Assembly (NCBI GenBank): GCA_964016885.1
Contig: OZ024743.1
Coordinates: 29,946,001 to 30,010,000, forward strand
Reading direction: 5' to 3'
Source of the DNA: Eledone cirrhosa
Taxonomy: Eukaryota
Length of the DNA: 64,000 nucleotides
Shown in pieces: positions 23,946 to 64,000 of this stretch (the first letter of the stretch is position 1; each line of letters begins with the position of its first letter). Under the pieces are notes generated by a model, which did no database searches, had not been told where the DNA came from, and saw nothing but the letters and a program-made list of their open reading frames with translations. A program made the position numbers and the translations under genes.

Positions 23946-23949
23946 CTTG

Positions 23950-24460: not shown

Positions 24461-24681
24461 CTATATATATATATATCATGTTTAATAGAGAAATAGCTTC
24501 TAACGGACTAGAACTGTTTCATGTAAAAGAAATGTTCAGCAAATCTGACTGTCCTTGTAAAACCTGTACTTATATGTTTTCTGATGGTTGGGGAAGGTGG
24601 TTATTTTGCGGATGGGTGGAGATTATTGGCCAAGTGATTTTAACGAACAGGGACTCATTGAAAAATGTATTTTTAGATATA

Positions 24682-32983: not shown

Positions 32984-33044
32984 AAAAATTACACACGGTG
33001 TTTGCATTTATACTGCTTGTGAATTCAAATAACATCAATAATAA

Positions 33045-33270
33045 AGAAAGAAAAAGAAAACAGAAAAAGGAAAAAAGAAAAAAAAGAAAAAAAAAAAAAA
33101 AGAAAAAAGAAAAAAAGAAAAAAGAAAAAAAAGAAAAAAAGAAGAAAAGAAAAAAAAGAAAAAAAGAAAAAAAAGAAAAAAAGAAGAAAAAAAGAAAAAA
33201 AAGAAAAAAAAGAAAAAAAAAGAAAAACAAGAAAAAAAGAAAAAAAAAAGAAAAAATAAGAAAAAGAAAA
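33045..33270. repeat. Polypurine (GA5-8)n tract
   Basis: About 225 bp almost entirely A/G on the + strand. Confidence 0.95.
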
Positions 33271-37634: not shown

Positions 37635-38700
37635 ATACCGTGGGAGGAATACCGGCATCTTAACGAATGCATGCACACTGCATAATTCCATGCAGAATGG
37701 TTTCGTCTCTCTGCTTGCATTTCTGACAGATCCGTCTGACAGTACATCCATACCTGTAGAGTTTGTCTCGAAACAGCCGTTGCACCGACCCGTAGCACTA
37801 CCAGGTAGGGATTTCACATAGACATGTGATCGAAAGTCCTCCGGGTCGAATTTCTCCGAGAAATTGTCACACTTGCCCACCACTAGTCCTCTATAGAACG
37901 ATAACGTAGAATTTCCACTGACATCATTGCCTAACTGATAGTGTTGTGAGCTCCTGACAACATTCCACATGCTGGGTACCCAGGATCACTTTTCACTTGA
38001 TACATGCCTGCAAGACAATGAAAGAGATGAGCTGCAGATAAACGTGTATAACAAACGGTGACCAAATCTGTTCACCGTTTACGAATACCTGCAAATACGG
38101 TAGCCTCAGCGAATGTTTACGCATCTTCATCCACGGCATGACGATACCACCACACAAAGGGCGTTGGCGTCAGATGGATCGTCTGATTAGTGGAACATGA
38201 CCCTTCCACAAGAAGTGAAATACATTGTCGTTGTTGGTATTGTTGTTCATGTTGCTGTTGTTGCATATGTCACTGGTCTAATTGTTGTTGTTTATGTTGT
38301 CATAGGTGGTATTTTATTGTTCCTGGTGTAATTTATTATTGTTGTGGTGGTGAAACTTTAGTTTCTGATGGTGGCAGCGGTGATTCTGATATTGTTAGTA
38401 ATAGTGTTGTTGTTGGTTTTTTTATTGGTCTGGCGGTGTTAACATTTTCATTAGTGGGAAGTCAATTGCATAATATTTTGTTTGTGTTGTTGCTGATGCT
38501 GCACCTGGCGAAGATGGTCATGTTGGCGATGTTTGTATTGCTGTTGCTGACAGTAGTAGTGGTGGTAGTGACATTAGTATTATTCACCATTGTACTCTGC
38601 CTGTTATTGACAAACTTTGTCATGACTTTTTAAATCATTTTTTCAGTTTGTCGGTTCTATTTCTGGATACGGTGATTGTGTTTGCTTCCATTACAAACAG
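37635..38700 (-). mobile_element. Decayed, internally deleted Tx1-like copy
   Basis: RKHSLRLPYLQVF (~38110) and SGNSTLSFYRGLVVGKCD (~37890) match array ORF2; upstream T/N-rich ORF1-like stretch. Confidence 0.75.

Positions 38701-40596: not shown

Positions 40597-40654
<58 letters not shown>
40597..40654. repeat. (TATC)n tract at the left edge of the LINE array
   Basis: Read directly. Confidence 0.98.
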
Positions 40655-43600
40655 CAGGGTCCCTATACAAACTTATAGGTCCCTAAAAGAAACATTTGAG
40701 AATGATGTGGGGAATTCCTGCGTGACACCACTGAACCGCGTCCTTCTCAAATGTCTGCCCACGCCAGACACCCCCGTCCCACCAGACCCCACCCCACCAC
40801 ACATCTCCGTCCCCACCACGCCGGAAACCACCACCCATCCAGACAACCCCTCCAACACCCCCATGGAAATCGTGCAGCCTGGTCCCCAGGAGACGAAGGG
40901 TGAGTGATCTCTTTTCCTCTTTTAACTTTTCAGCACCAACATGGCCAATATAAGTGTTGGATGTGTGAACGTACGCGGCCTGGGTATGCCCTGGAAACAG
41001 GGCAAACTCTTAAACGACCTCAGGTCGCACAGTATGGATGTGGTAGCCGTTTGCGAGTCCAGGATCCACAGCGACGACAGCTGGCCCCCATATTCGATGA
41101 TTTTGAGATCTACGCATCTCTCTGTCAACCGGGGGGTGGGGCCGGAGTTGCCGTTTTGCTGCGGAAACACCTGGGCCTCGTAACACAGACAGTACATCTG
41201 GACCCGGAGGGTCGACTGGTGGTCCTAGACGTTGACGGTAGTGAAGGTGGAGACTTCAGGCTGGTGGCCGCATATGCACCATCCGGGACATCCGCGGCCA
41301 GACTTCTTCAAACGTCTAGAGACTTTTCTGGGAACATCCCGCTCCTTGCTTTTAGTGGGGGACTGGAATGGAATCCTAGATGCACGTTGGGACTATGTGG
41401 GAGCATGTCCCGATAAAGGGGGTGTAACAGTCTCAAACAGTTAATCAACCGATTTGACCTGGCCGATAGATATCGACTAGATTTTCCAACTGCGCCACTG
41501 TGGACGTGGACTAATCGTAGTGGAACATCTAGATCGTACCTAGATAGGGTTCTAGTTAGAAATAAGGATAGGGACATTTTAAGCTATCCATAAATGTTCA
41601 TGGTTGCCTATTAAGATCACAAACTAGTGACCAGCATGGCCAACCTTGATAGAACCCATAGACAAGGACCCGGCTACTGGAAGCTGAACCTGTCGTTACC
41701 GACAAGCAAAGCTTACAGTAGACGGATTAGCACTTTAGTTAAACAGCACTTGACAGGGGCCATTGTCAACAACAGATGGTGGTACTCTCTCAAGAGGGCA
41801 GTTAGATTAGACTCGTTAGTTTTTAGTAAAGAATTAGCGTTAGATAGAAATAGAACCGAGAAGGAACTGGTAGATAAAGTAGAAGAGGTAATTAGAAGTG
41901 GCAACGTAGTCAGCGTGCTAGCAACGAGAACGGCCTTGGACCAGTTATTCGACGCAAAGCACTAGGGCTGCGTTGTCAGAAGCAAAATACGTGCTCTGGG
42001 AAACGAGGGAGCCAAAGCTGTTAGCTGGGCCCGAGTGACGGAGGCAAAAAGTGGCAACAAGTCCACGATTCGGTCTTTGAAGGACCAAAACGGACGCTTG
42101 ATACGTGAGCCGAAGCAGATGTGTGCGGCCTTTCAGCGGCACTTTGCTCAACTGTTCGGGCGGGGCGTCGCGCCGGGAGGGGCTATGGATTTCGGTCCAT
42201 ACCTCGACGGCCTACCGCGACTCTCGGACAGGGAGGCAAAGTTCTGTGAAAAGCGGATTTCATCCGCTGAGATAGGGGACGCGCTGAGCCAATGCGGCAA
42301 ACGCAAATCTCCAGGTCTTGACGGTCTGCCCTACGAAATTTACGTAGCAATGTCGGACATATTCTCCGGTCTCCTGGAAGCGGTCTACTGCAACAGGCAA
42401 CAGAACTGGAGAATTCCCAGTTCTGTAACCGAGGGCATAGTCACACTAATCAGGAAGGACGAGAATAAGGGGGATGACATAGGCAACTTCCGGGCCATAA
42501 TTCTGCTAAACACAGAGTTAGAGATTTTTTGCCAAGGTGTTGTCAAATAGACTGGCGCCTGACGTCGAGAATCTGGTGGGAGAACCGCAGACATGCGCAA
42601 TCCCAACCAGGTCCATACACGACAACCTCCACCTCATGCGATACATCATAGAGAGGGTAGGATGTAAACCCGGCTTCGGTGGGGCCCTGATCAACTTGGA
42701 TCAGTCTAAGGCTTTCGATAGGGTTGACCATCGTTACCTGGATGCGGTGCTTGAGGCGGCAGGCTTCGTACCCGTTTTCAGGGGCTGGATTGCTGAAATG
42801 CAAAGCAGCAACATCTGCTCAAGGGTCAAGATGAACGGTTACATCTCGGAGCCGTTCCATATTACGCGATCCATTCGACAGGGATGCCCTCTCTCCTCCC
42901 TTCTGTACGCACTGACTCGAGAGCCACTACTGCGGAAGCTGGAGCTATTGCAGGGCATCCATTTGGAACCGGGACTGCGAAAAGCGGCGTCGGCCTAGGC
43001 TGACGACGTGACAGTAATGGTATCGAGCGCCTCGCAAATCGAGGAAGTCGGCACCTTACTGAAGGAATACGAAAGTTTCACAGGAGTGAAGCTGAACTGG
43101 GACAAGCCCATCGGTTTGCAACTCGGATCGTGGAGAGTCAGACCGATGCCTTCCGATGGCGTCGTCGGGCGCTGGACGGAAGGACCGCTAAAGCTGCTCG
43201 GGGTCTGGTTTGGTCCGGACCTCCAGGTGGAGAAGAACTGGAACGAAGTGACGGCCAAGGTGTTTGCACTCACCCAGAAGTGGGCCGAGTGCAAACTATC
43301 CTTGAAAGGTCGAGCGGAGGTGGCGAACACTTTTATAGCGTCCGCCATCTACTACCGCCTGACCGTCGTGCCTTGTCCAGCCAAAACGCTCGCCAAAATG
43401 GAGCGCGCGCTCTTCCAATTCCTTTGGAAGAGGCGGGCTCCTTTGGTGAGAATATCCATCTGCTGCCAACACTTCTAACGGAGTGCTGGGGATGCCGTGG
43501 TTGACGATGCGCAAACACGCGCTTAGGCTGCGGCATCTCTACGTATTCCTCACCGCACAACCGGTGTGGGCCCCGTTCGTGAGGCCAGCCTTCCCACAAT

Positions 43601-44611
43601 TCGTCTCGCTGACCGAGCTGCAGTCCTGGGTCAAGCAAAGACCGAGGAAAATGGGTGACTGGCACATCGAATGTGCTCAGGCGTTCACAGCCCTCTGGCA
43701 GGCGGACCCGGCGATCAGTGGAGACTCCACTTCGTCATTCTATAGAGGGTTGGTCCGCAGCAAGTGCGACGACGCGCTCGGTGAAACTCTAGGCGTAGAG
43801 GAAGATGAACTGGACAGTCTGTTCGGTAGGACCTTCCGCCCGGGACCGATGGACAACTTCCAAAAGTCCCTGGCCTGGCAATGCTACCGACGAGCTCTAC
43901 CAGTTCGAGAGAAGCTCTACAGACATGGGCGCCCGGGAAGGGACCCTGCAAAAAAGATCTGTCCGAGGTGCGTGCGAGACGAAGAAACCGTCGCGCACGC
44001 ATTCATACACTGCCCGGGCGTCACTGACCTGTGGGGCTATGTGGAACGACTATTGTCGCGGATAGGACCAGTCCGGTTGACCACCGACTCCATTGTCATG
44101 ATCAACCCGCCACCCTCCTTCAAAAACGAAGGAGAGGCGGTTTTCCTGTGTGTGATAGCTATGGCGAAAGAGGTTGTAACGTGGACAAGATTGAAAGGGC
44201 TGAGGTCAGACACCTTTCTCTCCGGCCAACAACTGATTCTTTTTTCAAATACCACTTTGGAAGAATAATCAGGATGGAGAGAGTGGTGCTGTACCCCGGC
44301 AAGTTTTATGAAAGGTGGGTTAAAGTGGCGAGAATGGCCCGAGTAAATGGGCCTTCTCTCTATATCAGCCTGTAGGTTTAGGAAAAGGAGGAGGAGAGGA
44401 AAGGAGTACAAACTCTTCGTACTCCTGGCGATGAGGGTTGCACATTTTTTCGGGGGTATGTGTTACCCATATAAACTGTCTCCTCCTACTGGGGAAAATC
44501 GACTAACTTTTTAAATTGCATTTGTGATAACATTTTACACGTTTTTATTGTATGTAAACTTCCCCCTTTGTACTTGTCCCCTGCATTTGTGCCCCTGTGG
44601 CTAATCAAGTA
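40655..44611 (+). mobile_element. Tx1/L1-clade LINE copy 1 (5'-truncated in ORF1; subfamily A)
   Basis: Starts at sequence matching 46591; ORF2 40941-44375 with APE, RT and C-terminal Cys/His domain; the Y of YADD is a stop codon. Confidence 0.95.
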
Positions 44612-44691
<80 letters not shown>

Positions 44692-44923
44692 GTCTATCTC
44701 TCTATCAGACGTGTGTCACTTCGCGGAGAAGTTTCCGTTAATCTATGTAAGAAAAAAAAGTGAGTTTTTAGTTAAATTTTATATCATTGTGTAACTTGAC
44801 CACCCGTCTGGACCTTCAGGTGGTGGGTCAACTCATTTTCGCCCCTACAGGGGCGGAATATTCATTTAAAAAATTTTTCTCCATCGAATCTTGGAAAAAA
44901 TATTGTAAAATTTTGATTACGTT

Positions 44924-46841
44924 ATGAACGCTGCATCCAACGATAATGGTGGTGGAGAGGCGGTAAGACTACAAAGCTCGCAGTCAACAACGTCTTCTTC
45001 ACTAGATACTACAGAGATGGAAAGACAAAATGAAAATAAAAAAACCAATTCATATCCAAACAACACAAATGACACCAAACAGTCCAATGACAACAAAAAT
45101 AACAGCAAAACCAATAATGATGATAAAAGCAACAATGATAACAACAACAAAGAAAAAAAATAAAGACAACGCCAATAACACCAGCATCAAAGACAACAAC
45201 AACACCAAGGAAAATACGGATGATACCAACATCTGTGACAACAAGAATAACAACAACAATAACAACAATAATGACAACACCACCAATACGGATTCCACAA
45301 AGAAACCAAAAATCTCCTTTGCGGAGAAAGTTCAAAAGAAAGAAGAATTGATATATCTCGACATAACGAATGCTGAACAACTTTTAAAGGACGCTAAGAG
45401 ATATGTCACTTTCGAAAAAAATGGTGCTTTCAGCATCAATTCTCCGGTAGAAATTCGCAAGGAAACTGCTCTCAAAACGATAGTTTTTAGGACAGTTTCC
45501 AATTCTACCCGAAAACCAGTCCAATTGTCACAGAAAGAAAATTGAACTGGTTTTCAAAAATTCAATGAATGATATTGCATTCATTCAAAGAAGCAAACTT
45601 TTTGGGAGTATTTCGGTACTCATGAAGGATCAATTGACGGCCCAAAATTACTCTGTGTCGCCAATTGTATCCAACCTGTACACCCTTTTCCCTATATACA
45701 TGGGAAAAAGGACACAAAAGATCAGAATCACGAGTGTCACACCAAAGGTGAACATATGGTGGATACTGTGCGGCTTCATCAATTTTGATGAAGACAGAAT
45801 ACTGTCAGTAGGAAAGTCCCCCAGAGATGTATTCAATGGGACTAGCATTGATGTTCTGGTGCAAATGAGCCCAGAGCGAATAGCTATGATCCTACAGCGT
45901 GTACTCCTGGACGGACTCACCTACATACACTTTTCGGTTGAGGGTAGTCGGCCTTCATGTTACCATTGCTTTAGCAGTGGTCACCTGAGGGCTTCCTGTC
46001 CTAAACTAATGAACCAAAAAAAGGCTCTTCTGCCGACACCCATCAAAACAACACGACCACCAACACCACCACAACAACAACAACAACAACACACAAAAAT
46101 AACCACAACAAACACAGTCCCACTCAACCCCACTCCACCTAAAACCACTGCAAAATCATACACAGGCACAACAGCTCCCCAAGACATACCCCTCCCCAAT
46201 CACACAGACGATACAACAGATGAGGCTATCTCGCCATCACCCAGTGAAGACGAGGGAGGACCCCATCGCTCGAAAAGAAAGAAAAGACATCACAAAAGCA
46301 AAAAACCAGCAAACACTACCACAAACATACAACCACCAACACAAACAACAAAAATATCACAAACAAAACCCCCACCTCCTGAAAACAAAATACCTACAAC
46401 AAAACGAAAGCACACACAAGAACTACAGACAAAAACAAACACAACACAAGAAAATTACACTTACACTTACATAAACACTGAAAACAAAACACTAATGGAG
46501 ACCATCACGAACGACCCTTTGGTTTTCACCGAAGGGAAAACTTTCGCCCACTCTATTAAAAATAACAAAAAACTGAACCTAAAACTGATTAGGGTCCCTA
46601 TACAAACTTATAGGTCCCTAAAAGAAACATTTGAGAAGGATGTGGGGAATTCCTGCGTGAAACCACTCAACCGCGTCCTCTCAAATGCCTCCCCACCCCA
46701 GACACTCCCATCCCACCAGACCCCACCCCACCAAACATCTTCGTTCCCACCCCGCCGGAAATCACCACCCATCCAGACAACCCCTCCAACACCCCCATGG
46801 AAATCGTGCGGCCTGGTCCCCAGGAGGCGAAGGGTGAGTGA
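44924..46841 (+). pseudogene. LINE ORF1 (gag-like, CCHC zinc knuckle), frameshifted
   Basis: EGSRPSCYHCFSSGHLRASCP; N/T/P-rich low-complexity segments. Confidence 0.85.
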
Positions 46842-46874
46842 TCTCTTTTCCTCTTTTAACTTTTCAGCACCAAC

Positions 46875-49800
46875 ATGGCCAATATAAGAGTTGGATGTGT
46901 GAACATACGTGGCCTGGGGATGCCCTGGAAACAGGGCAAACTCTTAAACGACCTCAGGTCGCACAGTATGGATGTGGTAGCCATTTGCGAGTCCAGGATC
47001 CACGGCGAGCGACAGCTGGCCACCATATTCGATGACTTTGAGATCTACGCATCTCTCTGTCAACCGGGGGGTGGGGGCGGAGTTGCCGTTTTGCTGCGGA
47101 AACACCTGGGCCTCGTAACACAGACGGTACATCTGGACCCGGAGGGTCGACTGGTGGTCCTAGACGTTGACGGTAGTGAAGGTGGAGCCTTCAGGCTGGT
47201 GGCCGAATATGCCCCATCCGGGACAGCGCGGCCAGACTTCTTCAAACGTCTAGAGACTTTTCTGGGAACGTCCCGCTCCTTGCTTTTAGTGGGGGACTGG
47301 AATGGAATCCTAGATGCACGTTGGGACTATGTGGGAGCATGTCCCGATAAAGGGGGGTGTAACAGCCTCAAACAGTTAATCGACCGATTTGACCTGGCCG
47401 ATAGATATCGACTAGATTTTCCGACTGCGCCACTGTGGACGTGGAGTAATCGTAGCGGAACATCTAGATCGTACCTAGATAGGGTTCTAGTTAGAAATAA
47501 GGATAGGGACATGTTAAGCTGTCCACAAATGTTCATGGTTGCCTATTCAGATCACAAACTAGTGACCTGCATGGCCAACCTTGAAAGAACCCATAGACAA
47601 GGACCCGGCTACTGGAAGCTGAACTTGTCGTTACCGACAAGCAAAGCTTACAGTAGACGGATTAGCACTTTAGTTAAACAGCACTTGACAGGGGCCATTG
47701 TCAACAACAGATGGTGGTACTCTCTCAAGAGGGCGGTTAGATTAGACTCGTTAGTTTTTAGTAAAGAATTAACGTTAGATAGAAATAGAACCGAGAAGGA
47801 ACTGGTAGATAAAGTAGAAGAGGTAATTAGAAGTGGCACCGTAGCCAGCGTGCTAGCAACGAGAACGGCTTTGGACCAGTTCTTCGACGCAAAGCACGAG
47901 GGCTGCTTTGTCAGAAGGAAAATACGGGCTCTGGGAAACGAGGGAGCCAAAGCTGTTTGCTGGGCCCGAGTGACGGAGGCAAAAAGTGGCAACAAGTCCA
48001 CGATTCGGTCTTTGAAGGACCAAAACGGACGCGTGATACGTGAGCCGAAGCAGATGTGTGCGGCTTTTCAGCGGCACTTTGCTCGGCTGTTCGGGGGGAG
48101 CGGCGCGCCGGGAAAGGCTATGGATTTCGGTCCATACCTCGACGGCCTACCGCGACTCTCGGACAGCGGGGCAAAGTTCTGCGAAAAGCCGATTTCAGCC
48201 ACTGAGATAGGGGGCGCGCTGAGCCAATGCGGCAAACGCTAATCTCCAGGTCTCGACGGTCTACCCTACGAAATTTACGTAGCAATGCCGGACTTATTCT
48301 CCGGTCTCCTGGAAGCGGTCTACTGCAACTGGCAACAGAACAGGAGAATTCCCAGTTCTGTAACCGGGTGCGTGGTCACACTAATCAGGAAGGACGAGAA
48401 TAAGGGGGATGACATTGGCAACTTCCGGCCCATAACTCTGCTAAACACAGAGTTAGAGATTTTGGCGAAGGTGTTGGCAAAGAGGCTGGCGCTTGTCGTC
48501 GGGAACCTGGTGGGAGAAGCGCAGACATGCGCAATCCCGACCAGGTCCATACACGACAACCTCCACCTCATGCGATACATCATAGAGAGGGTAGGGTGCA
48601 AACCCGGCTTCGGTGGGGCCCTGATCAACTTGGATCAGTCTAAGGCTTTCGATAGGGTTGACCATCGTTACCTGGATGCGGTGCTCGAGGCGGCAAGCTT
48701 CGGACCCGTGTTCAGGGGCTGGATTGCTGAAATGCACAACAGCAACATCTGCTCAAGGGTCATGGTGAACGGCTACCTCTCGGAACCGTTCCATATTACG
48801 CGATCCATTCGACAGGGATGCCCTCTCTCCTCCCTTCTGTACGTACTGACTCGAGGGCCACTACTGCGGAAGCTGGAGCTATTGCAGGGCATCCCTCTGG
48901 AACCGGGACTGCGGAAAGCGGCGTCGGCCTACGCCGACGACGTTCCAGTAATTGTGTCGAGCGCCTCGCAAATCGAGGAAGTCGGCACCTTACTGAAGGA
49001 ATACGAAAGTGTCACAGGAGCGAAGCGGAACCGGGAAAAGTCCATCGGTTTGCAACTCGGATCGTGGAGAGGCAGACCGATGCCTTCCGATGGCGTCGTC
49101 GGACGCTGGACGGAAGGACCGGTAATGCTGCTCGGGGTCTGGTTTGGTCCGGACCTCCAGGTGGAGAAGAACTGGAACGAAGTGACGGCCAAGGAGTTTG
49201 CACTCACCCAGAAGTGGGCCAAGTGCAAACTATCCTTGAAAGGTCGAGCGGAGGTGGCGAACACTTTTATAGCGTCCGCCATCTACTACCGCTTGACCAT
49301 CGTGCCTTGTCCAGCCAAAACGCTCACCAAAATGGAGCGCGCGCTCTTCCGATTCCTTTGGAAGAGGCGGGCTCCTTTGGTGAGAAGATCGATCTGCTGC
49401 CAACACCCTTCTAACGGAGGGCTGGGGATGCCGTGGTTGACGATGCGCAAACACGCGCTCAGGCTGCGGCATCTCTACGTATTCCTCACCGGACAACCGG
49501 TGTGGGCCTCGTTCGTGAGGCGAGCCTTCCCCGACTCGTCTCACTGACCGAGCTGCAGTCCTGGGTCAAGCAAAGACCGAGGAAAATGGGCGACTGGCAC
49601 ATCGAATGTGCTCAGGCGCTCACAGCCCTCTGGCAGGCGGACCCGGCGATCAGTGGAGACTCCACTTCGTCATTCTTTAGAGGGTTGGTCCGCAGCAAGT
49701 GCGACGACGCGCTCGGTGAAACTCTAGGCGTAGAGGAAGATGAACTGGCCAGTCTGTTCGGTAGGACCTTCCGCCCGGGACCGATGGACAACTTCCAAAA

Positions 49801-50304
49801 GTCCCTGGCCTGGCAGTGCTACCGACGAGCTCTACCAGTTCGAGACAAGCTCTACAGACATGGGCGCCCGGGCAGGGACCCTGGAAAAAAGATCTGTCCG
49901 AGGTGCGTGCGAGACGAAGAAACCGTCGCGCATGCATTCATACACTGCCCGGGCGTCACTGACCTGTGGGGCTATGTAGAACGACTATTGTCGCGGGTGG
50001 GACCAATCCAGTTGACCACCGAGTCCATTGTCATGATCAAACCGCCACCCTCCTTCAAAAACGAAGGAGAGGCGGTTTTCCTTTGTGTGATAGCTATGGC
50101 GAAAGAGGTTGTATGGTGGACAAGGTTGAAAGGGCTGAGGTCAGACACCTTTCTCTCCGGCCAACAACTGATTCTTTTTTTCAAATACCACTTTGGAAGA
50201 AGAATCAGTATGGAGAGAGAGGTGCTGTACCCCAGTTCGTTTTATGAAATGTGGGTGAAAGTGGCGAGAATGGCCCGAGTGAATGGCCCTATATCAGCCT
50301 GTAG
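46875..50304 (+). pseudogene. LINE ORF2: APE endonuclease plus reverse transcriptase
   Basis: NIRG, GDWN, SYLD, SDH, GYWKLN, NFRPITLLN, DQSKAFDRVDH, RQGCPLS, YADD, CPRC..ET..H..IHC; stop at 48240 and frameshifts near 49530 and 50288. Confidence 0.95.
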
Positions 50305-50542
50305 GTTTAGGAAAAGGAGGAGGAGAGGAAAGGAGTACAAACTCTTCGTACTCCTGGAGATGAGGGTTGCACTTTTTTTTTCGGGGGTATGTGTTACCCA
50401 TATAAACTGTCTCCCTCTATTGGGGAAAATCGACTAACTTTTTAAATTCCATTTGTGATAACATTTTACACGTTTGTATTGTATGTAAACTTCCCCCTTT
50501 GTATTTGTCCCCTTCTTTTGTGCCCCTGTGGCTAATAAGGAA

Positions 50543-50616
<74 letters not shown>

Positions 50617-50629
50617 TTATCTATCTATT

Positions 50630-53600
50630 TCTCTGTCTGACGCGTGGAACATCGCCGGTAAGTTTTTTGTTAATTTCTATGCAAAAAACCGATCTAATTG
50701 TTTGAAAAAACATAACACTTTGTAGATTAACCCCCCAAGCTGAATTGTCAGCTGGGTGGTAATCCCATTTTTCGATGGGCGAAAATTTTATTTTAAAAAT
50801 TTGTTTTAATATATCAGATTTTACAAACTAAATAACTTGAGCAACACAAGAACGCTGGAGAACGTTAATCGAGAAAAGAGAGAGAAAGAGGCAGATATTA
50901 ACGTTATATCTGCTTCTGCTACTATGGACGTCGCCATAGATACAAGTGTCAACAAAGAGACAAATATATTAACACTTGAAAATTTTAAAATTTCTACTGT
51001 CGAAGCGGAGAAAAATAACAATAATACTCAGGAAAACACAGGAATTAAACCCATTAACATATATACACATGAAAAAGACATCAACAACTCTACAGATACA
51101 TATACGCATAATGTTTTACCTCGACAAGGAACTGAGACTTCCAACAACGATAACAACAACAACAACAACAACAGCAACACCACACAAAAAAAGAAAATGT
51201 ATTTCGCTGAAACAGTGAACAAAAAACAAGATTTTATAATTCTTGATATCACCAACGCAAGAGATATGCTCCAGCAAGGGAGACCATTTGTAACTTTCGA
51301 AGAAAGAGGTGGGTTTAGAATTAACTCACCCCTTGAAATAAAGGAAGACACAATCTGCAGTTCAGTCACCTTTAGGACTGTGTCAAATTCCACAAGAATG
51401 CCGACATTTGTTAACCAAGCAGATATAGAAGATACTTTCAAGGAAATTCTAGCAAATGTCGATTTTCTCCAGCGCGGAAAACAGTACAGAAGTGTTTCCG
51501 TACTGTTTAAAAGCGAGACACTCGCCCCAAAAAACTCTGTGACACCAATGGTGTCAGAAGCATACACCTTTTTCCCTACATACATGGGAAAAAGGACACA
51601 ACAAATAAAAATAAAAAACATACCTCCAAACATTAACATCTGGTGGATCTTGGCTGGCTTCGTAGAGCCAGAAACTGATATGATACTTTCGATACGAAAA
51701 TCTATTCGACAAAGGTGGGCGGGCACAGATTTGGAGATTCTTTTGCAAATGAAACCGGAGAGAATCTCCAAAATACCCGAAAGAGTCGTTATCGATAATA
51801 ACAACAAAATAAACATTTCGGTAGAAGGACGAACATTTCATTGCTTTCGCTGTGGTAGCACAGCACACCTAAATGCCTCTTGTCCACAAACACAAAAACA
51901 ACATCATAAAAAAACGCCATTATCAACACGAACACAAAAACAATCACCACCACCACAAGTACAACGACAGACGAAACGAGCAACCCCACCAAAACAAACA
52001 GACACTCAACCAACAACAACAGAAAAAACAGAGACAACACCCCTGAAGAACACTCCATCAAACACTACCACAAATACACACGCCGAAACACCACCACCTG
52101 ACGATGATTATTCATCGACGGATGAAGCTGCTTTTCCTTCTTTAAGTGAAGAAGAGGGAGAACCGCGGAAATCTAAAAAAACAAAAAAAGGGACACCACA
52201 AAACCCCCAAAACTCCAATCACCAACACCAACACACAACCACAGACACAAACAACACCACAGTCAAACATCCCCTATCAGCAAAACCAGCACCAACACCA
52301 CCCCAAACACAAGCACCCACCATAAAAAAGAACACTCCCGGATGAACAATAAACTAAAACAACACAACAAAAACACAAACAACAATACGCATACATCAAC
52401 ACAAACAACAAGAGTTTGATGGAGGTCCTCTCCCAAAACCCCAAGGTGGAGACGGAGGGCAAAACTTTCGTCAGGGCAGAATCGTCTCCACACCTTAAAC
52501 TTATAAGGGTTTCTATGGAAACCTATAAAGACCTAAAAATTAAATTTTCACAGGACGTGGGCAACCCCTGCCACAAACCCATCAACCGCGTCCTGTTGAA
52601 AGGTTTCCCCACATTACCCAACACCCCATCCAGCACCCAAATGGAGATTGAACAACCCGATCTCCAGGAAACAAAAAGGTAAGTGCACCTTTCGTCCTTT
52701 TTCTCCAACTTTTCTTCACCAACATGGCTGGTTTACGAGTTGGAACCGTGAATGTGCGTGGCCTAGGGATGCCCTGGAAACAGGGCCAACTTTTAAACGA
52801 CCTTAGGTCACACAGTATGGATGTGATAGCCATCACCGAGTCCAGGATCCACAACAGGCAGCAACTAACCCCCATCTTCGACGACTTTGAGATCTACGCA
52901 TCTCTCTGTCAGCCAGGAGGTGGAGGTGGAGTGGCTGTCATGTTTCGGAAGAACCTGGACGTCGGAGTACAGAAAGTACACTTGGACCCGAGGGTAGACT
53001 GGTAGTCCTAGACGTGAACAGTATCGGAGGTGGAGCCTTCAGACTGGTGGCCGTTTATGCCCCGACCGGGAAATCGCAATCATGGCCAGACTTCTTTAAG
53101 CGTCTAGAGTCTTTTCTGGGAACGTCTCGCTCCTTACTTTTAGTGGGGGATTGGAACGGTATCCTAGATGCACGATGGGACTATGTGGGAGCATGTCCCA
53201 GTAGAGCGGGGTGCAACAGCCTCAACACTTTAATTGGCCAATTCCAACTGGCCGATAGGTATCGACTGGATTTCCCGACTGCACCACAGTGGACGTGGGT
53301 ACACCGCAGTGGGACATCTAGATCGTATTTAGATAGGTTCTTCATTAGAGAAAGGGACAAGGATATGTTAAGCTGTCCACGAATGCACATGGTTGCTTAT
53401 TCAGATCACAAGTTAGTCGTCTGCTTAGTCAACCGTGATAGAATACATAGACAGGGTCCCGGATACTGGAAGCTGAACGTGTCGTTGCCAGCACGTAAAG
53501 CTTACAGTGAACGGATAAGTAGACTAGTCAAGCAAAAGTTAACGGGAGCCATCGTCAACAATAGATGGTGGTACTCTCTCAAGAAAGCAATTAGAATAGA

Positions 53601-56382
53601 ATCGATAGGGTATAGCAGAGAGTTAGCCTTATAGAAAAACAGAATAGAAAGAGAACTAGTAGCCAAGGTAGAGGAGGCACTTAGAAGTGGCTACGCGGTT
53701 AGAGTGTTAGCGTCGAGAACGGCACTGGACCAGTTCTTCGATGCGAAAAACGAAGGCTGAGTGGTCAGAAGCAAAACACGTGCTCTAGGAAACGAAGGAG
53801 CGAAATATATCAGCTGGGCCCGAGTGACGGAGGCAAAACGTGGCAACAAGTCCTCGATTCGGTCTATGAAAGACCAAAACGGACGCGTGCTACTTGACCC
53901 CAAACAAATGTGCGCGGCCTTTCAGCGGCAGTTTGCGCGACTGTTTGAGCAGAACGACGGTGAGCCGAACGGGGCAATGGACTTTAGGTCATACCTCGAC
54001 GGCCTGCCGCGTCTCTCGAACACGGACGCCGAGTTCTGCGAAAGACCAATCACGGACACTGAGATACGGGACGCTGTGGGCCGTTGCGGGAAACGCAAGT
54101 CACCCGGTCTAGATGGTCTACCCTACGAATTTTACATATGCCGAACTTGTTCTCTGGCGTCCTCGAAGCCGTCTACTGCAATTGGCAGCAGAACGGGAGA
54201 ATTTCCAGTTCTGCAGGCAAGGGCGTAGTAACGCTGATCAGGAAAGACGAGAACAAGGGGGCGGAATTAACAACTTCAGGCCCATAACTCTGCTCAACAC
54301 AGAGTTAAAGATTTTGGCCAAGGTGCTATCGACGAGGTTGGCGCTTGTCGTCGAGAACCTGGTAGGGAAAGCGCAAACGTGTGCAATCCCGACCAGGTCC
54401 ATACACGACAACCTCCACCTCATGCGATACATCATAGAGAGGGTGGGTAGTAAACCCGGCTTCGGTGGGGATCTGATCAACTTGCATCAGTCTAAGGCAT
54501 TCGATAGGGTCGACCATCGATACTTGGAAGCGGTTCTCAAGGCGGCCGGTTTCGGTCCCGTGTTCAGAGGATGGATCGAGGCGATGCACACCAGCATCTG
54601 CTCGAGGGTCAAGGTGAACGGCTACCTATCGGAGCCGCTCGCAATCACGCGTTCCATTCGACAGGGGTGCCCTCTCTCCTCCATTCTGTATGTATTGACT
54701 CTAGAGCCACTACTGCGGAAATTGGTGTGGTTGCAGGGCATCCCCCTAGAACCGGGACTGCGCAAAGCGGCTTCGGTTTATTCCGACGACGTGACAGTAA
54801 TGGTGTCGAGCACCTCGGAAATCGGGGTGATCGGCAACATACTGAAAGAATACGAAACGCTGACGGGAGCAAAACTAAACCCAGACAAGTCTGTCGGTTT
54901 GCAACTCGGTACCTGGAGAGGCAAACCGATGACATCCGACAGCGTCGTTGGACGCTGGACGGACGGACCGGTGAAATTGCTCGGGGTCTGGTTCGGTCCA
55001 GACCTCCAGGTGGAGAAAAACTGGAACGAGGTCACGGCCAAGGTGTTTGCAGAGTGCAAACTGTCCTTGAAAGGTCGAGCGGAGGTGGCGAACACTTTCA
55101 TAGCGTCCGTCATCTACTACCGCTTGACTGTCGTGCTTGTCCCCGTGAACACCTCGCCAAGAAGGAACGCATGCTCTTCCAGTTTCTGTGGAAGAAGCAG
55201 GCTCCGCTGGTGAGGCGATCCGTCCGCTGTCAGCACCCTTCCAACGGAGGGCTGGGAATGCGTGGCTGATGATGCGCAAACATGCGCTGAGGCTGCGGCA
55301 TCTCCAGGTATTCCTCACCGACACCCAACCGGTGTGGGCACCGTTTGTGAGGCAGGCTTTCCCACAGCTCGTCTCGCTAACGGAGCTGCAGTCCTGGATG
55401 AAGAAAAGACCGAAAATGATGGGCGCCTGGCACATTCAATGCGCTCAGGCGCTCACAGTCCTCTGGCAAGCGGGCGCAGCATTCAGTGGAGACTCCACTT
55501 CGACATTCTATAGAGGGATTGTACGTTACAAGGGCGACGACGTGCTCGGAGAGACTCTGGGCGTCGAAGACGATGAACTCACTAGTCTGTTTGGTAGGAC
55601 TTTCCGCCCAGGACCTATGGACAACTTCCAGAGGTCCCTGGCCTGGCAGTGCTACCGAGGAGCTCTACCGGTTCGTGACAAGATCTACAGGCACGGACGC
55701 CCTGGCAGGGATCCTTCCAAGAGGACGTATCCAAGATGTGCGCAGGACATTGAAACAGTTCTGCACGCAATTGTATACTTCCCGGGCGTAAGCGACCTGT
55801 GAAACTATGCAGAACAACTGCTGTCGCGTAAGGGACAAATCCAGTTGACTGCCGAGTCCATAGTAAGGATCAAACCGCCAGACTCTTCCAAAAACGAAAG
55901 AGAGGCGGTTTTCCTCTGTACGGTTGCTATGGTTAAAGAAGTTATATGGTGGACGAGATTGAGAGGACTGAGGACAGATGCCTTTCTCTCCGGACAACAA
56001 TTGATTCCCTTCTTTAAGTATCACTTTAGAAGGAGAATCAGAGTAGAGAGAGAAGCACTGCACCCCAGTAAATTTACTGAAAGGTGGGTGAATGAAGCGA
56101 AAATGGCCCGAGTGATTGGGCCTTCTCTGTTTATAAGCCTGTAGGTTGAGGAAGAGAGCAAAAGGAGGAAGGGAGCACTTGCACAACACGCTCCTGGAGT
56201 TGAGGGTTGTTCTATCGACGGGGTATTAAACAACCCATTTGTGGCGCCTCCCCCCTATTGGGGATTTCGATTGTTGAAATTGTTTGTTTTTATATATTTT
56301 ACACGACTGTATGTAAAATCCCCGGCATATCTTTGTATTGTCCCCGTTTCTTGTTGCGCCCTTGTGGCTAATAAAGAAATAT
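50630..56382 (+). mobile_element. Tx1/L1-clade LINE copy 3 (full length; subfamily B)
   Basis: ORF1 50837-52682 with CFRCGSTAHLNASC; ORF2 52724-56144 disrupted (YSDD); (TATC)n at 56383-56483. Confidence 0.95.
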
Positions 56383-56427
56383 ATCTATCTATCTGTCTAT
56401 CTATCTATCTATATATCTATTAAAACC

Positions 56428-56483
<56 letters not shown>

Positions 56484-56866
56484 CAACAATTGATTCCATT
56501 CTTTAAGTATCACTTTAGAAGGAGAATCAGGGTGGAGAGAGAGGCATTGCACCCCAGTAAATTTACTGAAAGGTGGGTGAATGAAGCGAAAATGGCCCGA
56601 GTGATTGGGCCTTCTCTGTTTATAAGCCTGTAGGTTGAGGAAGAGAGCAAAAGGAAGAAAGGAGCACTTGCACAACACGCTCCTTGAGTTGAGGGTTGTT
56701 CTATCGACGGGGTATTAAACAACCCATTTGTGGCGCCTCCCCCCTATTGGGGATTTCGATTGTTGAAATTGTTTGTTTTTATATATTTTACACGACTGTA
56801 TGTAAAATCCCCGGCATGTCTTTGTATTGTCCCCTTTCTTGTTGCGCCCTTGTGGCTAATAAAGAA
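56484..56866 (+). mobile_element. LINE copy 4 (3' fragment; subfamily B)
   Basis: Nearly identical to 55996-56380; followed by (TATC)n at 56867-56882. Confidence 0.95.
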
Positions 56867-56882
56867 ATCTATCTATCTATCT

Positions 56883-59800
56883 GACGGAATTACGAACTGT
56901 CGTATTCCGAACAATTTTAAATAAAACAAAAAAACCAGCGCAACCATCTCAAGCCGAAATTCAGTTAGTCTTGAAAGACGCGATGAGAGACATCACTTTT
57001 ATACAAAAGGATAAACTCTATGGGAGTTTATCCAATATGATGAAAGACGAATTGGCGGCGAAAAAATACTCTGTGTCGCCAATTCGGTCCACACACTACA
57101 CCTTCTTCCCCACCTACATGGGTAAAAAACCCCAGAGGATATGGATAACCACCATCACCCCAAACATAAACTACTGGTGGTTACTAACCGGCTTCCTCAA
57201 TTTAGACGAGGACAACCTCATTTCAATAAAGAAGGCATCCGGCGACGCGTTCAGTGGAACGAGCATCGAAGTTCTGACCCAAATAAGGCCAGAACGCATC
57301 GCCCAAATCCCTGAGCGCGTCATGCTGGATGACCGTACCCACCTCAACATTATTGTGGAGGGTAGGCGTCCCTCCTGTTACCTCTGTGGCAATAGAGGTC
57401 ACCTGAGGGCTGCCTGTCCCCAGCTCACACAGAAAAAAACACTGCTACCAACACAAACACCGCCCCAACATCAACAACAAAAACAACCACAACAACAACA
57501 ACAACAAAAACCAACAACCCCACCACCACCACCACCACCACCACCACAACAACAACAACAACAAATACGTGAAAAAATAACACAGAATACCGTCCCACCC
57601 AATCCCTCCCCACCCAAAACAAATACAAAATCACACACACCGCAAATACTACCAGAAAACATACCCCTCCCACCCAACAAAGAAGACGAACCCCTTTCGT
57701 CGCAAGACGAACAAGATCCCTTCCAACAAGTAAAAAGAAAGAAGAGGAGACGCACCACAGACACACATGTTAACTTTAATCCCCCCCCCCACCCAAGAGA
57801 ACACAAACTACACACAAACCACCCCTCCCTGTCACACAACACTATCTGCTACACAAAAAAAGACCTTACAATATACATACATGAACACAGACAACAAAGA
57901 ATTACGGAAAACAATTTCAGCAAACCCTTCGGTCCAAACCGAAGGGCCTAACTTTAAAACTGCTGTGGGACTACCTCATTTAAAAATGATAAACTCCCAA
58001 TGCACTTGTACAAAACACTGAAAATAAATTTCACGGAGGACGTTGCCCCCCCCCCTGCGCCAAACCAATCAACCGCGTCCTCCTAAAAAATCCCCCCCCC
58101 TCCCACACACACACCCCAGACACCCACTCAACCACAAACACCCCAACCCCACAACACACCGATGCCCCTTCACTTCCACAAACCACCACCCCACCCAACA
58201 ACCCATCCCCAACCAGCATGGAAATTGAGCGGCCCGTTTCCCGGGATGCAGAGAGGTAAGTGCCTTTTCTCCTTACCACCAACATGGCTGTGCTAAGAGT
58301 AGGGTGTCTAAATGTGCGTGTCCTGGGCTCGTCTTGGAAGCAAGCAATGCTTCTAAATGACCTCAGGTCACAATCTATAAATGTGATGGTTATCTGCGAG
58401 GCACGGATCAGCAGCATGCGACAGCTATCCCCCACCTTTGACGACTTTGAGATGCACGCATCTCTCTGTCAGCCCGGAGGTGGGGGTGGGGTTGTCGTTC
58501 TGCTGCAAAAACATATGGTCCTTGCAACACAGATAGTTCACTTGGACCCAGGGGGTCGACTGGTGGTGCTGGACCTTGGCAGTGGTGAAGGTAGAGCCTT
58601 TAGGCTGGTAGCCGTATATGCCCCTTTTGGGACTGAGCGGCCCGACTTTTTCCAGCGTCTGGAGTCTTTTCTAGGGACGTCCCGTTCCCTGCTTTTAGTG
58701 GGGCATTGGAATGGTATCCTGGATGCACGTTGGGAATATGCAGGGGCATGTCCCGATAGAGAGGGGTGCAACAGCCTCAAGGGGTTACTCGGCCGATTTG
58801 ACCTGGCCGATAGATTTCGACTAGATTTTCCGACGGTGCCAACCTGGTCTTGGTCAAATCGCAACGGATCATCTAGGTCGTACCTAGATAGATTTTTAGT
58901 TAGAAATAAGGACAGGGACTTTTTAAGTTGTCCAGAAATGCTCATGGTTGGCTATTCAGACCACAAGTTGGTGACCTGCATGGTCAACCTTGATAGAACG
59001 CATAGACAGGGCCCCGGTTACTGGAAGCTCAACTTGTCCTTGCCGGCAAGTAGAGCCTATAGGGATCGGATTAGTACGTTAGTTAAGGAACGGTTGACTG
59101 GAGCGATCGTCAACAGCAGGTGGTGGGTATCTCTAAAGAGAGAGATTAGAGTAGTCTCGATAGAATTTAGTAAGGTTCTAGCTGCGGATAGGAATAGGAA
59201 GGAAAGGGAGCTAATAGATAGAGTAGAAGAGGCTATTAGAAGCGGCAACGTGGCCAGAGTGCTAGCGTCGAGAACGGCTTTGAGCCATTTTTTCGACGAG
59301 AAGCACGAAGGCTGCGTTGTCCGAAGTAAAATACGTGCTCTAGGGAACGAGGGGACCAAAGCTGTTAGCTGGGCCCGCGTGACAGAGGCCAACAGTGGAA
59401 CTAAATCCACTATCCGGTCTTTGCGAGACCTGGATGGACGGGCGATTCTTGAGCCTAAGCAGATGTGTGAGGCCTTTCAAAGGCACTTTGCCCGACGGTT
59501 CGGGAGGGGCGGGGAGCCGGTTGGGAACGTGGACTTCGGTCCATACCTCGACGGCCTGCCGCGCCTCTCGGACAGGGAGGCGAAGTCCTGCGAGGAGCCG
59601 ATTTCGGCTGCTGAGATAGAGGACGTGCTGAGCCAATGCAGCAAACGCAAATCCCCGGGTCTCGATGGTCTTCCTTACGAATTATATCTAGCTATGCCGG
59701 ACTTGTTCCCCGATCTCCTCGAGGCGGTCTACTGCAACTGGCAACATAACGGGAGAATTCCCTGTACCGTGACCAAGGGCGTAGTCACGCTAGTAAGGAA

Positions 59801-61980
59801 GGACGAGAGCAAGGGGGACGAAATAAGTAACTTCAGGCCCATAACTCTGCTAAATACAGAGTTACAGATTTTGGCCAAGGTGCTAGCAAAGAGGTTGGCG
59901 CTTGTCGTGGGCAACCTGGTGGGAGATGCGCAGACATGCGCTATCCCGTCCAGGTCCATCCATGACAACCTCCACCTCATGCGATACATCATAGAGAGGG
60001 TTGGGAACGAACCCGGCTTTGGTGGCGCTCTGATCAACTTGGATCAATCTAAGGCGTTCGATAGGCTCGACCATGGTTACCTGGATGCGGTGCTAGCGGC
60101 GGCAGGCTTCGGACCCGTTTTCAGGGGCTGGATCACTGCTATGCACAGCAGCCGCATCTGCTCTAGGGTCAAGGTGAACGGCTACCTCTCGGAGCCGTTC
60201 AAAATCGCGCGGTCCATCCGACAAGGGTGCCCTCTTTCCTCCCTTGTGTATGTGTTGACTCTCGAGCTACTACTGCGGAAGTTGGAGTTGTTGCAGGGCA
60301 TCCCGTTGGAACCGGGATTGCGGAAAGCGGTGTCGGCCTACGCCGATGACGTGACAGTAATGGTGTCGACGGCCTCCGAAATCGAGGCGGTCGGCACCTT
60401 ACTGGAGGAGTACGAAAGGTTCACAGGGGCTAAGCTGAACCGGGACAAGTCGATCGGTTTGCAACTCGGCACGTGGAGGGGCAGACCGATGCCCTCCGAT
60501 GGCGTCGTCGGGCGCTGGACGGAGGGCCCGGTGAAGTAGCTCGGGGTCTGGTTCGGACCGGACCTCCAGGTGGAGAAAAACTGGGCGGAGGTTACGAACA
60601 GGGTGTTTGCACTGACCCAGAAGTGGGCCAGTTGCAAACTATCCCTGAAAGGTCGGGCGGAGGTGGCGAACACCTACATAGCGTCCGTAATCTACTACCG
60701 CCTGACCGTAGTGCCCTGCCCAAGGGAAACCCTCACCAAGATGGAGCGCGCACTCTTCCAATTCCTTTGGAAGAGGCGGGCTCCTATGTTGAGGAGATCC
60801 ATATGCTGTCAACACCCTTCGAAAGGGGGGCTGGGGATGCCGTGGCTAATGATGCGTAAACACGCATTAAGGCTACGGCACCTCTACGTATTCCTCACCG
60901 TCAACCGGTGTGGGCCTCGTTTGTGAGACGAACCTTTCCCAGACTCGTCTCACTCACCGAGCTGCAATCCTGGGTCAAGCAAAGACCGAGAAAACTGGGC
61001 GCCTGGCACACTGAGTGTGCCCAGGCGCTCACCGCCCTCTGGCAGGCGGATCCGGTTATCAGTGGAGACTCCACCGCAACATTCTATAGAGGGCTGGTAC
61101 GCAGCATGTGCGACGACGCCCTCGGAGAAGCCCTAGACATTGAAGAGGACGAACTGGCCAGACTGTTCGGTAGGACATTCAGCCCGGGACCTATGGACAA
61201 CTTCCAGAAGTCCCTGGCCTGGCAGTGCTACCGAGGGGCTTTACCCGTTCGAGAAAGGCTCTACAGACACGGGCGCCCGGGTAGGGACCCCGCCAAAAAG
61301 ATCTGTCCCAGATGCGTGTGCGACGAGGAAACGGTTGCATTGGTACACTGCTCGGGCGTAGCCGATCTGTGGGGCTATGTCGAACAACTGCTGTCAAGGG
61401 TGGGACCGATCCGGTTGACCACCGAGTCTATTGTAATCATCAAGCCGCCTCCCCCCTTCAAAGATGAAGCAGAGGCGGTGTTTCTGTGCGTAATAGCCAT
61501 GGCGAAAGAGGTTGTATGGTGGACGCGTCTGAAAGGACTGAGGTCAGGCACCTTTCTCTCTGGCCAACAACTGGTCCGTTTCTTCCGATATCATTTTGGA
61601 AGAAGGATCAGGATGGAGAGAGAGGTGCTCCACCCCAGTCGTTTTTATGAAAGGTGGGTGAAAGTGGCGAGAATGGCCCGTGTGAATGGGCCTTCTCTTC
61701 ATATAAGCCTGTAGGTGGAAAAGAGGAAGGAACGAGGGAGCACCCCCTCTCTGTGCTCCTGAGGAAAAGGGTTGCACACTTTTTTCCGGGGTGTGTGCGA
61801 CCCCCCAAGGCGCCTCCTCTCTATTGAGGATTTTGTTATAAATTTTATTTTTTGTTATATTTTATTTTATTTTTATATTTTGTTATTGCCTCCTCCTTAT
61901 TGAGGACGCCTTGTTTTGTAAACTCCCCCCATTGTACTTGTCCCCACTTTTGATGCCCTGGTGGCAAATAAAAGAAACAT
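56883..61980 (+). mobile_element. Tx1/L1-clade LINE copy 5 (5'-truncated in ORF1; subfamily C)
   Basis: ORF1 to 58259 with CYLCGNRGHLRAAC; ORF2 58284-61714 open through YADD, stop at 60537; short TATC tract at 61981-61993. Confidence 0.95.
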
Positions 61981-61993
61981 ATCTATCTATCTA

Positions 61994-64000
61994 GCCTCCA
62001 ATAGAAATAGGAAGGAAAGGGAGTTGTTAGATAGTGTAAAAGAGGCAATTAGAAGCGGCGACGTGGCCAGAGTGCTAGAGTCGAGAACGGCCCTGGGCCA
62101 GTTCTTCGACGCGAAACACGAAGGCTGCATCGTCCGAAGCAAAATACGTGCTCTGGGAAACGAGGGGACCAAAGCTGTTATCTGGGCCCGCGTGACAGAA
62201 GCCAAAAGAGGGAGCAGATACACTATCCGGTCTTTGCGAGACCAGGATGGACGGGTGATCCTTGAACCTAAGCAGATGTGCGAGGCTTTTCAAAAGCACT
62301 CTGCCGGATTGTTCGGAAGGGGCGGGGGGCCGGTTGGGGACGTGGACTTCGGTCCATACCTCGACGGCCTGCCGCGTCTCTCGGACAGGGAGGCGAAGTC
62401 CTGCGAGGAGCCGATTTCAGCCGCTGAGATAGAGGACGTGCTGAGCCAATGCGGCAAACGCAAATCCCCGGGTCTCGATGGTCTTCCATACGAACTATAT
62501 GTTCCCCGGTCTTGTTCCCCGGTCTCCTCGAGGCGGTCTACTGCAACTGGCAACAGAACGCGATAATTCCCTGTGCTGTGACCAAGGGCGTTGTCACGCT
62601 AGTGAGGAAGGACGAGAAAAAGGGGGACGATATAAATAATTTCAGGCCCATAACTCTACTAAATACAGAGTTACAGATTTTGGCCAAGGTGCTAGCAAAG
62701 AGGTTGGCGCTTGTCGTGGGCAACCTGGTGGGAGATGCGCAGACATGTGCTATCCCGTCCAGGTCCATCCACGATAACCTCCACCTCATGCGATACATCA
62801 TAGAGAGGGTTGGGAACGAACCCGGCTTTGGTGGGGCCCTGATCAACTTGGATCAATCTAAGGCATTGGATAGGGTCGACCATGGTTACCTGGATGCGGT
62901 GCTAGCGGCGGCAGGCTTCGGACCCGTTTTCAGGGGCCGGTTCAATGCCATGCACAGCAGCCGCATCTGCTCTAGGGTCAAGGTGAACGGCGACCTCTCG
63001 GAGCCGTTCAAAATCGCGCGGTCCATCCGACAGGGGTGCCCTCTCTCCTCCCTTCTGTATGTAATGACTCTAGAGCCACTGCTGCAGAAGTTGGAGTTGT
63101 TGCAGGGCATCCCGTTGGAACCGGGATTGCGGAAAGCGGTGTCAGCCTACGCCGATGACGTAACAGTAATGGTGTCGACGGCCTCGGAAATCGGGGCGAT
63201 CGGCACCTTACTGGAGGAGTACGAACGGTTTACAGGGGCTAAGCTGAACCGGGACAAGTCGATCGGTCTGCAACTTGGCACGTGGAGGGGGAGATCGATG
63301 CCCTCCGATGGTGTCGTCGCGCGCTGGACGGAGGGCCCGGTGAAGTTGCTCGGGGTCTGGTTCGGACCAGACCTCCAGGTGGAGAAGAACTGGGGTGAGG
63401 TGACGAACAGGGTGTTTGCACTGACCCGGAAGTGGGCCGAGTGCAAACTGTCCCTGAAAGGTCGGGCGGAGGTGGCGAACACTTATATAGCGTCCGTCAT
63501 CTACTACCGCCTGACCGTTGTGCCTTGCCCAAGGGAAACGCTCGCCAAAATGGAGCGCGCACTCTTCCAATTCCTTTGGAAGAAGCGGGCTCCTATGGTG
63601 AGGAGATCCATTTGCTGTCAACACCCTTCGAAAGGAGGGCTGGGGATGCCGTGGCTAATGATACGTAAACACGCATTAAGTCTACGGCACCTTCAGGTAT
63701 TCCTCTCCGGTCAACCGGTGTGGGCCCCGTTTGTGGGGCGAGCCTTTCCCAGACTCGTCTCACTCACCGAGCTGCAATCCTGGGTCAAGCAAAGACCGAG
63801 AAAACTGGGCGCCTGGCACACCGAGTGTGCCCAGGCGCTCACGGCTCTCTGGCAGGCGAACCCGGCTGTCAGTGGAGAATCCACCTCGTCATTCTATAGA
63901 GGGCTGGTGGTTAGCAGTTGCGACGACGCCCTGGGAGAAGCCCTAGGCATGGAGGAAGACGAACTGGCCAACCTGTTCGGTAGGACATTCAGCCCGGGAC
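61994..64000 (+). mobile_element. LINE copy 6 (5'-truncated after the endonuclease; subfamily C), continues past the window
   Basis: Aligns to copy 5 from ~59177; RT motifs including YADD at ~63148. Confidence 0.95.

Follow-up and report, generated by a model that had tools for sequence, protein, structure and literature searches.

A Tx1-like LINE family of Eledone cirrhosa in (TATC)n tracts, with sister families in (ATT)n and a young sub-lineage at CAATA

The stretch of Eledone cirrhosa DNA described here ("the window", 64,000 nucleotides of contig OZ024743.1, positions 29,946,001 to 30,010,000) carries from position 40597 onward a head-to-tail array of six plus-strand copies, E1 to E6, of a long interspersed nuclear element (LINE) separated by tracts of the tetranucleotide TATC. 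A (TATC)14 tract (40597-40654), the upstream remnant of the target, is followed by E1 (40655-44611), a 5'-truncated member of the E2 subfamily whose second open reading frame (ORF2, 40941-44375) has five stops as well as frameshifts. The next TATC tract (44612-44706), the final bases of which probably belong to E2 as its TATC-like 5' leader, adjoins the full-length E2 (44707-50542), with a broken ORF1 (about 45006-46887), an ORF2 (46875-50304; one stop, one frameshift) encoding endonuclease (EN), reverse transcriptase (RT) and zf-RVT regions, and a 3' untranslated region (UTR) terminating in GTGGCTAATAAGGAA. E3 (50629-56381), a full-length copy of a second subfamily, lies behind a TATC tract that includes its 5' leader (50543-50628), and has an ORF1 frame at 50810-52345 and an ORF2 (52724-56144) with stops and frameshifts. 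An interrupted TATC tract (56382-56483) precedes E4 (56484-56866), a 383-bp 5'-truncated copy of the E3 subfamily, and an (ATCT)4 tract (56867-56882) precedes E5 (56883-61979), a third-subfamily copy truncated within ORF1, with a CCHC knuckle in frame 56863-57951 and an ORF2 (58284-61714) with one stop and one frameshift. Behind a (TATC)3 tract (61980-61992), the 5'-truncated E6 of the E5 subfamily starts near ORF2 residue 308 (61993-64000) and extends past the window to the equivalent of position 64795; a seventh copy (about 64845-67043) ends in TATC and then (TA)n. ORF2 is broken by stops or frameshifts in all five array copies long enough to judge.

Tract and copy mapping bears out the initial annotation, which had been made from the letters of the window, in its six co-oriented copies with TATC junctions, all six tracts lying on one strand. 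It had also reported no TATC tract in the first 40 kb: positions 1-40596 hold dozens of TA, CA and CT tracts and no TATC tract of three or more units, two-unit matches being present (e.g. at 4285, 9575 and 27820). Its further statement that the 3' end runs into TATC without poly(A) stands for the five 3' ends visible in the window, which read GTGGC(T/A)AAT(A/C)AA and reach TATC a few bases on, and fails for one dispersed copy (L036), in which a rare poly(A) of 23 residues precedes TCTATC. A search of the genome for a poly(A)-junction pattern, which misses the E2-type end as in L036, gave one match.

The 5' starts differ among the copies: E1 begins at the end of ORF1, E5 inside ORF1 and E6 inside ORF2, while E2 and E3 are full length. 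Identity within subfamilies is 94.9% for E1/E2, 91.8% for E5/E6 and 97.4% over 384 bp for E3/E4, and between subfamilies 76-83% in long alignments; because of these values the window array is not one recent duplication. Mostly independent insertion, which had been proposed from the differing truncation points, thus holds, and an origin of the array from just one or two copies, whether through tandem or segmental duplication or as a misassembly, is hardly credible. That explanation could draw on the closeness of E3 and E4, on near-identical arrays with identical spacers in a young related family described below and on one dispersed locus resembling a tandem duplicate (L016), yet it has to contend with three interleaved subfamilies with different 5' ends. 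Since dispersed E3 copies match the E3 3' end at 96-99%, the same level as E4 shows, E4 needs no duplication; a duplication origin is refuted for the array as a whole and is ambiguous for E4 alone.

With an EN/RT/cysteine-rich ORF2, 5' truncation and target-site duplications, the element is a non-long-terminal-repeat retrotransposon of the L1 group with an apurinic/apyrimidinic-type endonuclease (APE-type). Intact ORF2s of 1150 and 1153 amino acids are found elsewhere in the genome (L038, L149). In the intact ORF2, Pfam Exo_endo_phos and RVT_1 score over the cut-off and zf-RVT just under it; zf-RVT is over the cut-off in one window frame. The best solved-structure match of ORF2 by sequence is human L1 ORF2p (E 1.7e-47), and the predicted EN (predicted local distance difference score, 94.4) has L1 EN as its best fold match (template-modelling score, 0.85), before cellular AP endonucleases. 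The closest named protein, from Argonauta hians, matches at 66%, further relatives (P0004 etc.) at 41-46% identity, and the best named fish protein at 32% identity. Sequence runs of seven organisms carry at least 20% of the element words, four of them covering all 30 bins though not the sequence past the 3' end; no RNA run is among those listed, which says nothing on expression. A metagenome scan for relatives returned almost only distant elements, and L175 shows no repeat at its 3' end. Degenerate old fragments of the same lineage lie in the window at 37666-38223 (minus strand) and 7279-7707 (plus strand), with 31-36% amino acid identity to ORF2.

The assignment to the Tx1 clade made in the initial annotation is consistent with these data and likely, though not proven. 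In a quick tree the family falls in a 31-row clade with TX1/YTX2-named vertebrate proteins and four U2-adjacent or U2-inserted elements, with a Shimodaira-Hasegawa-like approximate likelihood ratio test (SH-aLRT) value of 94 (89 in another quick tree), a moderate support from RT trees in which plant L1 and Dictyostelium fall outside the clade and vertebrate L1, Tx1L, Kibi and Koshi are absent. A CCHC zinc knuckle in ORF1 is a feature of the Tx1 clade, and ORF1 here has a single candidate for it, a CX2CX4HX4C motif (Pfam zf-CCHC E 0.0017, under the cut-off).

The genome-wide sample consisted of the top-scoring matches to three 3' UTRs (the best 40 of 1075, of 1052 and of 2097 candidates). It comprised 113 distinct copies, all outside the window, 94 truncated and 19 full-length, after the window copies (L001, L065, L076, L095), L122 (with the junctions of L121), one listed E5 place and small loci superseded by larger ones had been set aside. 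A TATC junction was called from a run of 8 or more nt. Such a run is present on the 5' side of 78 of the 113 copies (60 of the 94 truncated and 18 of the 19 full-length) and on the 3' side of 85; it occurs in 10 of 4168 background windows, and opposite-strand TATC is found at none of the 113 junctions. Because a short TATC-like 5' leader comes with every full-length insertion (L367, L369), the target can be judged from the truncated copies only. Both flanks exceed the proportion in the rule of Kojima, by which a family is microsatellite-specific when the target occupies more than 20% of flanks (PMC4494074; here and below, papers are cited from the portions of their text that were available).

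The register is fixed as well: by hand count, some 75 of the first 100 matches in the genome have TATCT two bases past GAAA, and the 2-nt linker between the two (TA, TC, CA, TT, TG or GA) is heritable and tracks subfamily. A further subfamily with the TT linker (L418-L447) has 845 exact ends, and its long copies are 85-88% identical to E2. Duplications with unique content flank 18 copies, against a mean of 0.37 and a maximum of 3 in shuffled controls. With L016 excluded as a probable tandem duplication, 17 unique target-site duplications of 10-22 bp are left, 12 of which begin at TATCT (10-21 bp) and five at (C)AATA; some overlap the repeat by TATCT alone (L049, L113).

Dispersed copies with TATC at the 3' end only and arbitrary 5' flanks would, as the initial annotation had pointed out, mean a tail and not a target; the dispersed copies carry TATC mostly on the 5' side too, and their unique duplications begin with TATCT. 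Families of CR1, L2 and RTE have element-encoded 3' repeat tails, and TATC might likewise be a tail that seeds microsatellites, the 5' tracts being the tails of neighbours. The frequency of TATC at the 3' side (85/113) and about ten truncated copies with 3' TATC and an unrelated 5' flank would suit such a tail. Against it, the unique duplications contain TATC itself, and among the 34 truncated copies with no 5' run not one has a duplication enclosing the TATC tract, the best matches being 7-11 nt or simple repeats. Moreover, an upstream family 3' end is present in only 29 of the 113 copies versus a 5' TATC run in 78. With the tract enclosed in none of these 34 and the duplications starting with the repeat, we rejected the tail model, which we regard as very improbable, and we state with high confidence that TATC is the insertion target of the family. 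That copies insert at random and merely persist near microsatellites has next to no probability: the host genome is indeed microsatellite-rich, but strand and register are fixed and the far commoner TA and CA tracts are unused. Landing in (CT)n was seen in single copies only (L161, L125).

The GATA/TATC specificity put forward in the initial annotation is therefore strong (60/94 versus 10/4168) yet not absolute, and several observations count against its being complete. A 5' TATC run is missing from 34 of the 94 truncated copies; 18 of these 34 also have no junction duplication; four of the 18 (L045, L047, L138, L142) have family sequence upstream and no clean end, and the others are unexplained. 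One sub-lineage, moreover, uses CAATA.

The target is left on both sides of an insertion, so that in the plain sense insertions regenerate their own target, as had been suggested, and mixed-subfamily arrays result. A co-oriented relative lies across the tract from 57 of the 113 copies and an opposite-oriented relative from none. Starting from the repeat, we followed one contig up to its 28th long tract: 20 of these tracts adjoin the three subfamilies and two further ones a fourth, whose ORF1 homology was judged by eye, giving 22 of 28. The genome holds at least 13,016 exact E2/E3-type 3' ends, a few of them ATT-type, and 12,640 starts of TATC tracts of six or more units. The fourth TATC-associated subfamily (L397, L405, L407) is set apart by its 5' end; its open ORF1 frames are nearly identical to one another, and it is apparently young.

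Two sister families are found in (ATT)n. At 6-12 kb beyond the window, on the minus strand, lies a full-length relative (L061:6946-10000 and L062:1-2700) with about 70% nucleotide identity to the TATC family; it shares the 3' end of that family but has (ATT)n on either side, and its own family has ATT at the 3' end in 29 of 30 loci. In a younger ATT family, whose copies are 99.5-100% identical along the last 1.9 kb and which has many stop-free ORF2 matches, ATT follows the 3' end in 30 of 30 loci and also lies upstream of the element in all 11 single loci whose alignment reaches its start; this 5' evidence comes mostly from full-length copies, and truncated copies with true flanks have ATT in four of seven. 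The TATC and ATT families are sister clades in the tree, with 60-67% identity in EN and 79-84% in RT. At least five tandem full-length copies of an ATT family, 98.7-99.8% matching and with identical 16-nt spacers, occupy G000:C1:423390500-423420499 (L329-L331), and they represent a tandem duplication, a concatemer or an assembly effect. The ATT family also lands in a short and common repeat that ends in GTAGAAA..(ATT)n (upstream flanks of L317, L324 and L326); at window positions 29354-29871, sequence related to this repeat is arranged as a 201-bp tandem repeat.

The CAATA sub-lineage belongs to the E3 subfamily. Directly after the E3-type end, TCTATC was counted 1246 times and TCAA 130 times, and among 41 CAA loci, counted after apparent duplicates (L359-L361, L365) and loci superseded by larger ones were dropped, 37 read TCAATA and four TCAATC. 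Duplications are present in 24 of the 40 CAA loci with a visible 5' end, 22 of them including AAT, which comes after C in 14 and after T in 8. Loci L367-L369 and L337 share a single repeat region and are possibly not independent; there, full-length and truncated CAATA copies are repeated within a host tandem repeat, and the 3' flank CAATATT matches the commonest target of the sub-lineage. A tree places all 19 long CAATA copies and one further copy, L372, on one side of a split and 14 other E3 copies opposite (FastTree support 0.88; 0.94 with 3 kb); alignments of 1.1 and 3 kb separate the CAATA copies, which 340-bp haplotypes fail to do. The tail of L372 is TCAATCTATC, a single base off the TATC tail. 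In the five CAATA-group copies that cover EN (residues 1-250) this domain is the same as in TATC-type relatives, except that two of the five have a single private change each. The sole group-linked change in ORF2 is D932Y in the C-terminal region. A second retargeted lineage was sought in copies with a TT-TATAT end (eight of the first 100 matches), and this candidate failed as three copies did not cluster; with crude 5' boundaries, TATC was found in 12 of 23 of the TT-TATAT set.

Taken as a whole, the reading that we consider probable is that of a Tx1-like LINE entering (TATC)n tracts in one orientation by a two-layer choice of site, in which a moderately selective endonuclease acts together with an inherited RNA tail. 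The endonuclease would nick the GATA strand, our best guess being AGAT^A, at a TpA step as in L1; the junctions cannot place the nick to a single base. By analogy with established target-primed reverse transcription, the nicked end would then prime synthesis on the 3' end of the element RNA, likely by base pairing with the final few nucleotides of a read-through transcript. The target duplication would result from a second nick at a distance of 10-20 bp, and since TATC would be left on both sides, later copies could insert next to their predecessors, so that head-to-tail arrays would grow. The linkers TA, CA, TT, TG and GA are unlike the TC of the target and yet are inherited, so the RNA must contain the linkers and probably extends a few bases into the repeat; the A23 of L036 means that polyadenylated RNA can be copied too. 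Pairing of target-like RNA has a precedent in R1Bm and SART1 (PMC7265360). Folding of the 3' UTR at four window ends gave z-scores of -0.85 to 0.42, nothing above shuffles.

A two-layer choice would account for the move to CAATA. That the RNA tail contributes to site choice we hold somewhat better than an even proposition. A bolder form of it, which we offer tentatively and rate below even, is a self-reprogramming LINE in which the tail acquired at the last landing site guides the next insertion, so that a single tail substitution (CUAUC to CAAUC, followed by CAAUA) would have redirected the lineage from GATA microsatellites to AT-rich sites scattered through the genome, its endonuclease being unchanged. 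Alternatively, the ORF2 protein alone may set the target, with the TATC/ATT split due to endonuclease changes, the CAATA shift due to D932Y and the 3' linker a passive relic. EN diverges more than RT between the TATC and ATT families, the predicted EN hairpin reads NRSG in one and NR(I/M)G in the other, and this hairpin loop influences target choice in L1/Tx1L grafts (PMC1950540). Of the CAATA copies that can be read at this residue, 17 of 20 have D932Y, against none of 16 other E3 copies, and the ATT families are also without D932, so a protein cause has to be kept in play. On the other side, three early-branching CAATA copies (L379, L364, L144) retain D932, only L379 among them having a duplication, of 8 bp; the CAATA-group EN is unchanged; and L372, the tree neighbour of the group, shows the single tail change. 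An effect of protein alone seems to us unlikely, if far from negligible, and the CAATA lineage provides a natural test of whether RNA assists in choosing the target, which it suggests but does not prove.

Elsewhere in the window, an A-rich tract of 228 bp with a 9/17-bp period lies at 33043-33270, and open frames of 153-469 amino acids are found at 22599-24008 (minus strand) and at 17005-18923 and 24043-24786 (plus strand), with no Pfam match in the four that were scanned.

Among solved structures, human L1 ORF2p is the best match by both sequence and EN fold. L1 differs in that it uses a long poly(A) for priming at TTTT^AA, and its dispersed copies form no arrays. Nicking at T^A by the family EN, as in L1, is plausible by this comparison. 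Dong, Waldo, Mino and Togen are microsatellite-associated elements of other clades (R4, R1 and NeSL-related). Their targets are (TAA)n, (ACAY)n, (AC)n and (TG)n, respectively (PMC3812793, PMC4640811); the repeat of Dong is that of the ATT sister families, and none of the four targets GATA in these accounts. Kibi in (TC)n, Koshi in (TTC)n and the crocodilian Tx1 families in (TTCC)n/(TTTC)n (PMC4494074, PMC3812793) are, like the present family, APE-type LINEs in microsatellites, with related families in related repeats, and belong to the Tx1 clade, the likely clade of the present family. The present elements differ from Kibi and Koshi in having (TATC)n/(GATA)n as target and sister families on (ATT)n, a distinction drawn by target description and not by sequence comparison. 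Keno-like elements (L166, L170, L193, L194; U2 identified by Rfam, the Keno label being our reading of PMC4494074) share the SH-aLRT 94 clade. They sit in U2 genes and two of them (L166, L170) end in poly(A), which the TATC family almost never keeps; these four, like a LINE that adjoins U1 snRNA sequence at L176:9202-9356, are metagenome elements. R1Bm and SART1Bm are also APE-type and specific, and target-like RNA has been proposed to anneal to the nicked strand; they differ in belonging to the R1 clade and in that pairing aids accuracy at a fixed target, natural retargeting not being described in the available text of PMC7265360.

Published microsatellite targets comprise TC, TTC, TTCC/TTTC, ACAY, AC, TAA and TG (PMC4494074, PMC3812793, PMC4640811, PMC3747384, PMC1950540, PMC7265360, PMC13295347, PMC13282606, PMC8967140), in the portions of these papers that were available. 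No GATA-targeting LINE was found in the open literature; subscription papers, Repbase, Dfam and the supplementary Tx1 target lists of PMC4494074, which could hold one, lay outside the search. For octopus, 13 recently active L1-Tx1 families are listed in PMC13282606, and the word "target" is absent from the main text of that paper as available. Judged against the open literature, the kind of element is known and (TATC)n as its target is new; new too are the sister families in (ATT)n and the shift of a young sub-lineage to CAATA while its endonuclease domain stayed unchanged.

Microsatellite targeting by APE-type elements has been described in review as poorly understood and is credited to the endonuclease (PMC3812793). 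The natural series TATC/ATT/CAATA, with intact ORF2s and near-identical endonucleases, would allow the contribution of protein to be separated directly from that of RNA. The family adjoins most of the sampled long GATA tracts and is thus relevant to octopod microsatellite markers and to repeat annotation. If self-reprogramming is true, specificity would be inherited as RNA sequence, which could explain the frequent target switching of Tx1 elements.

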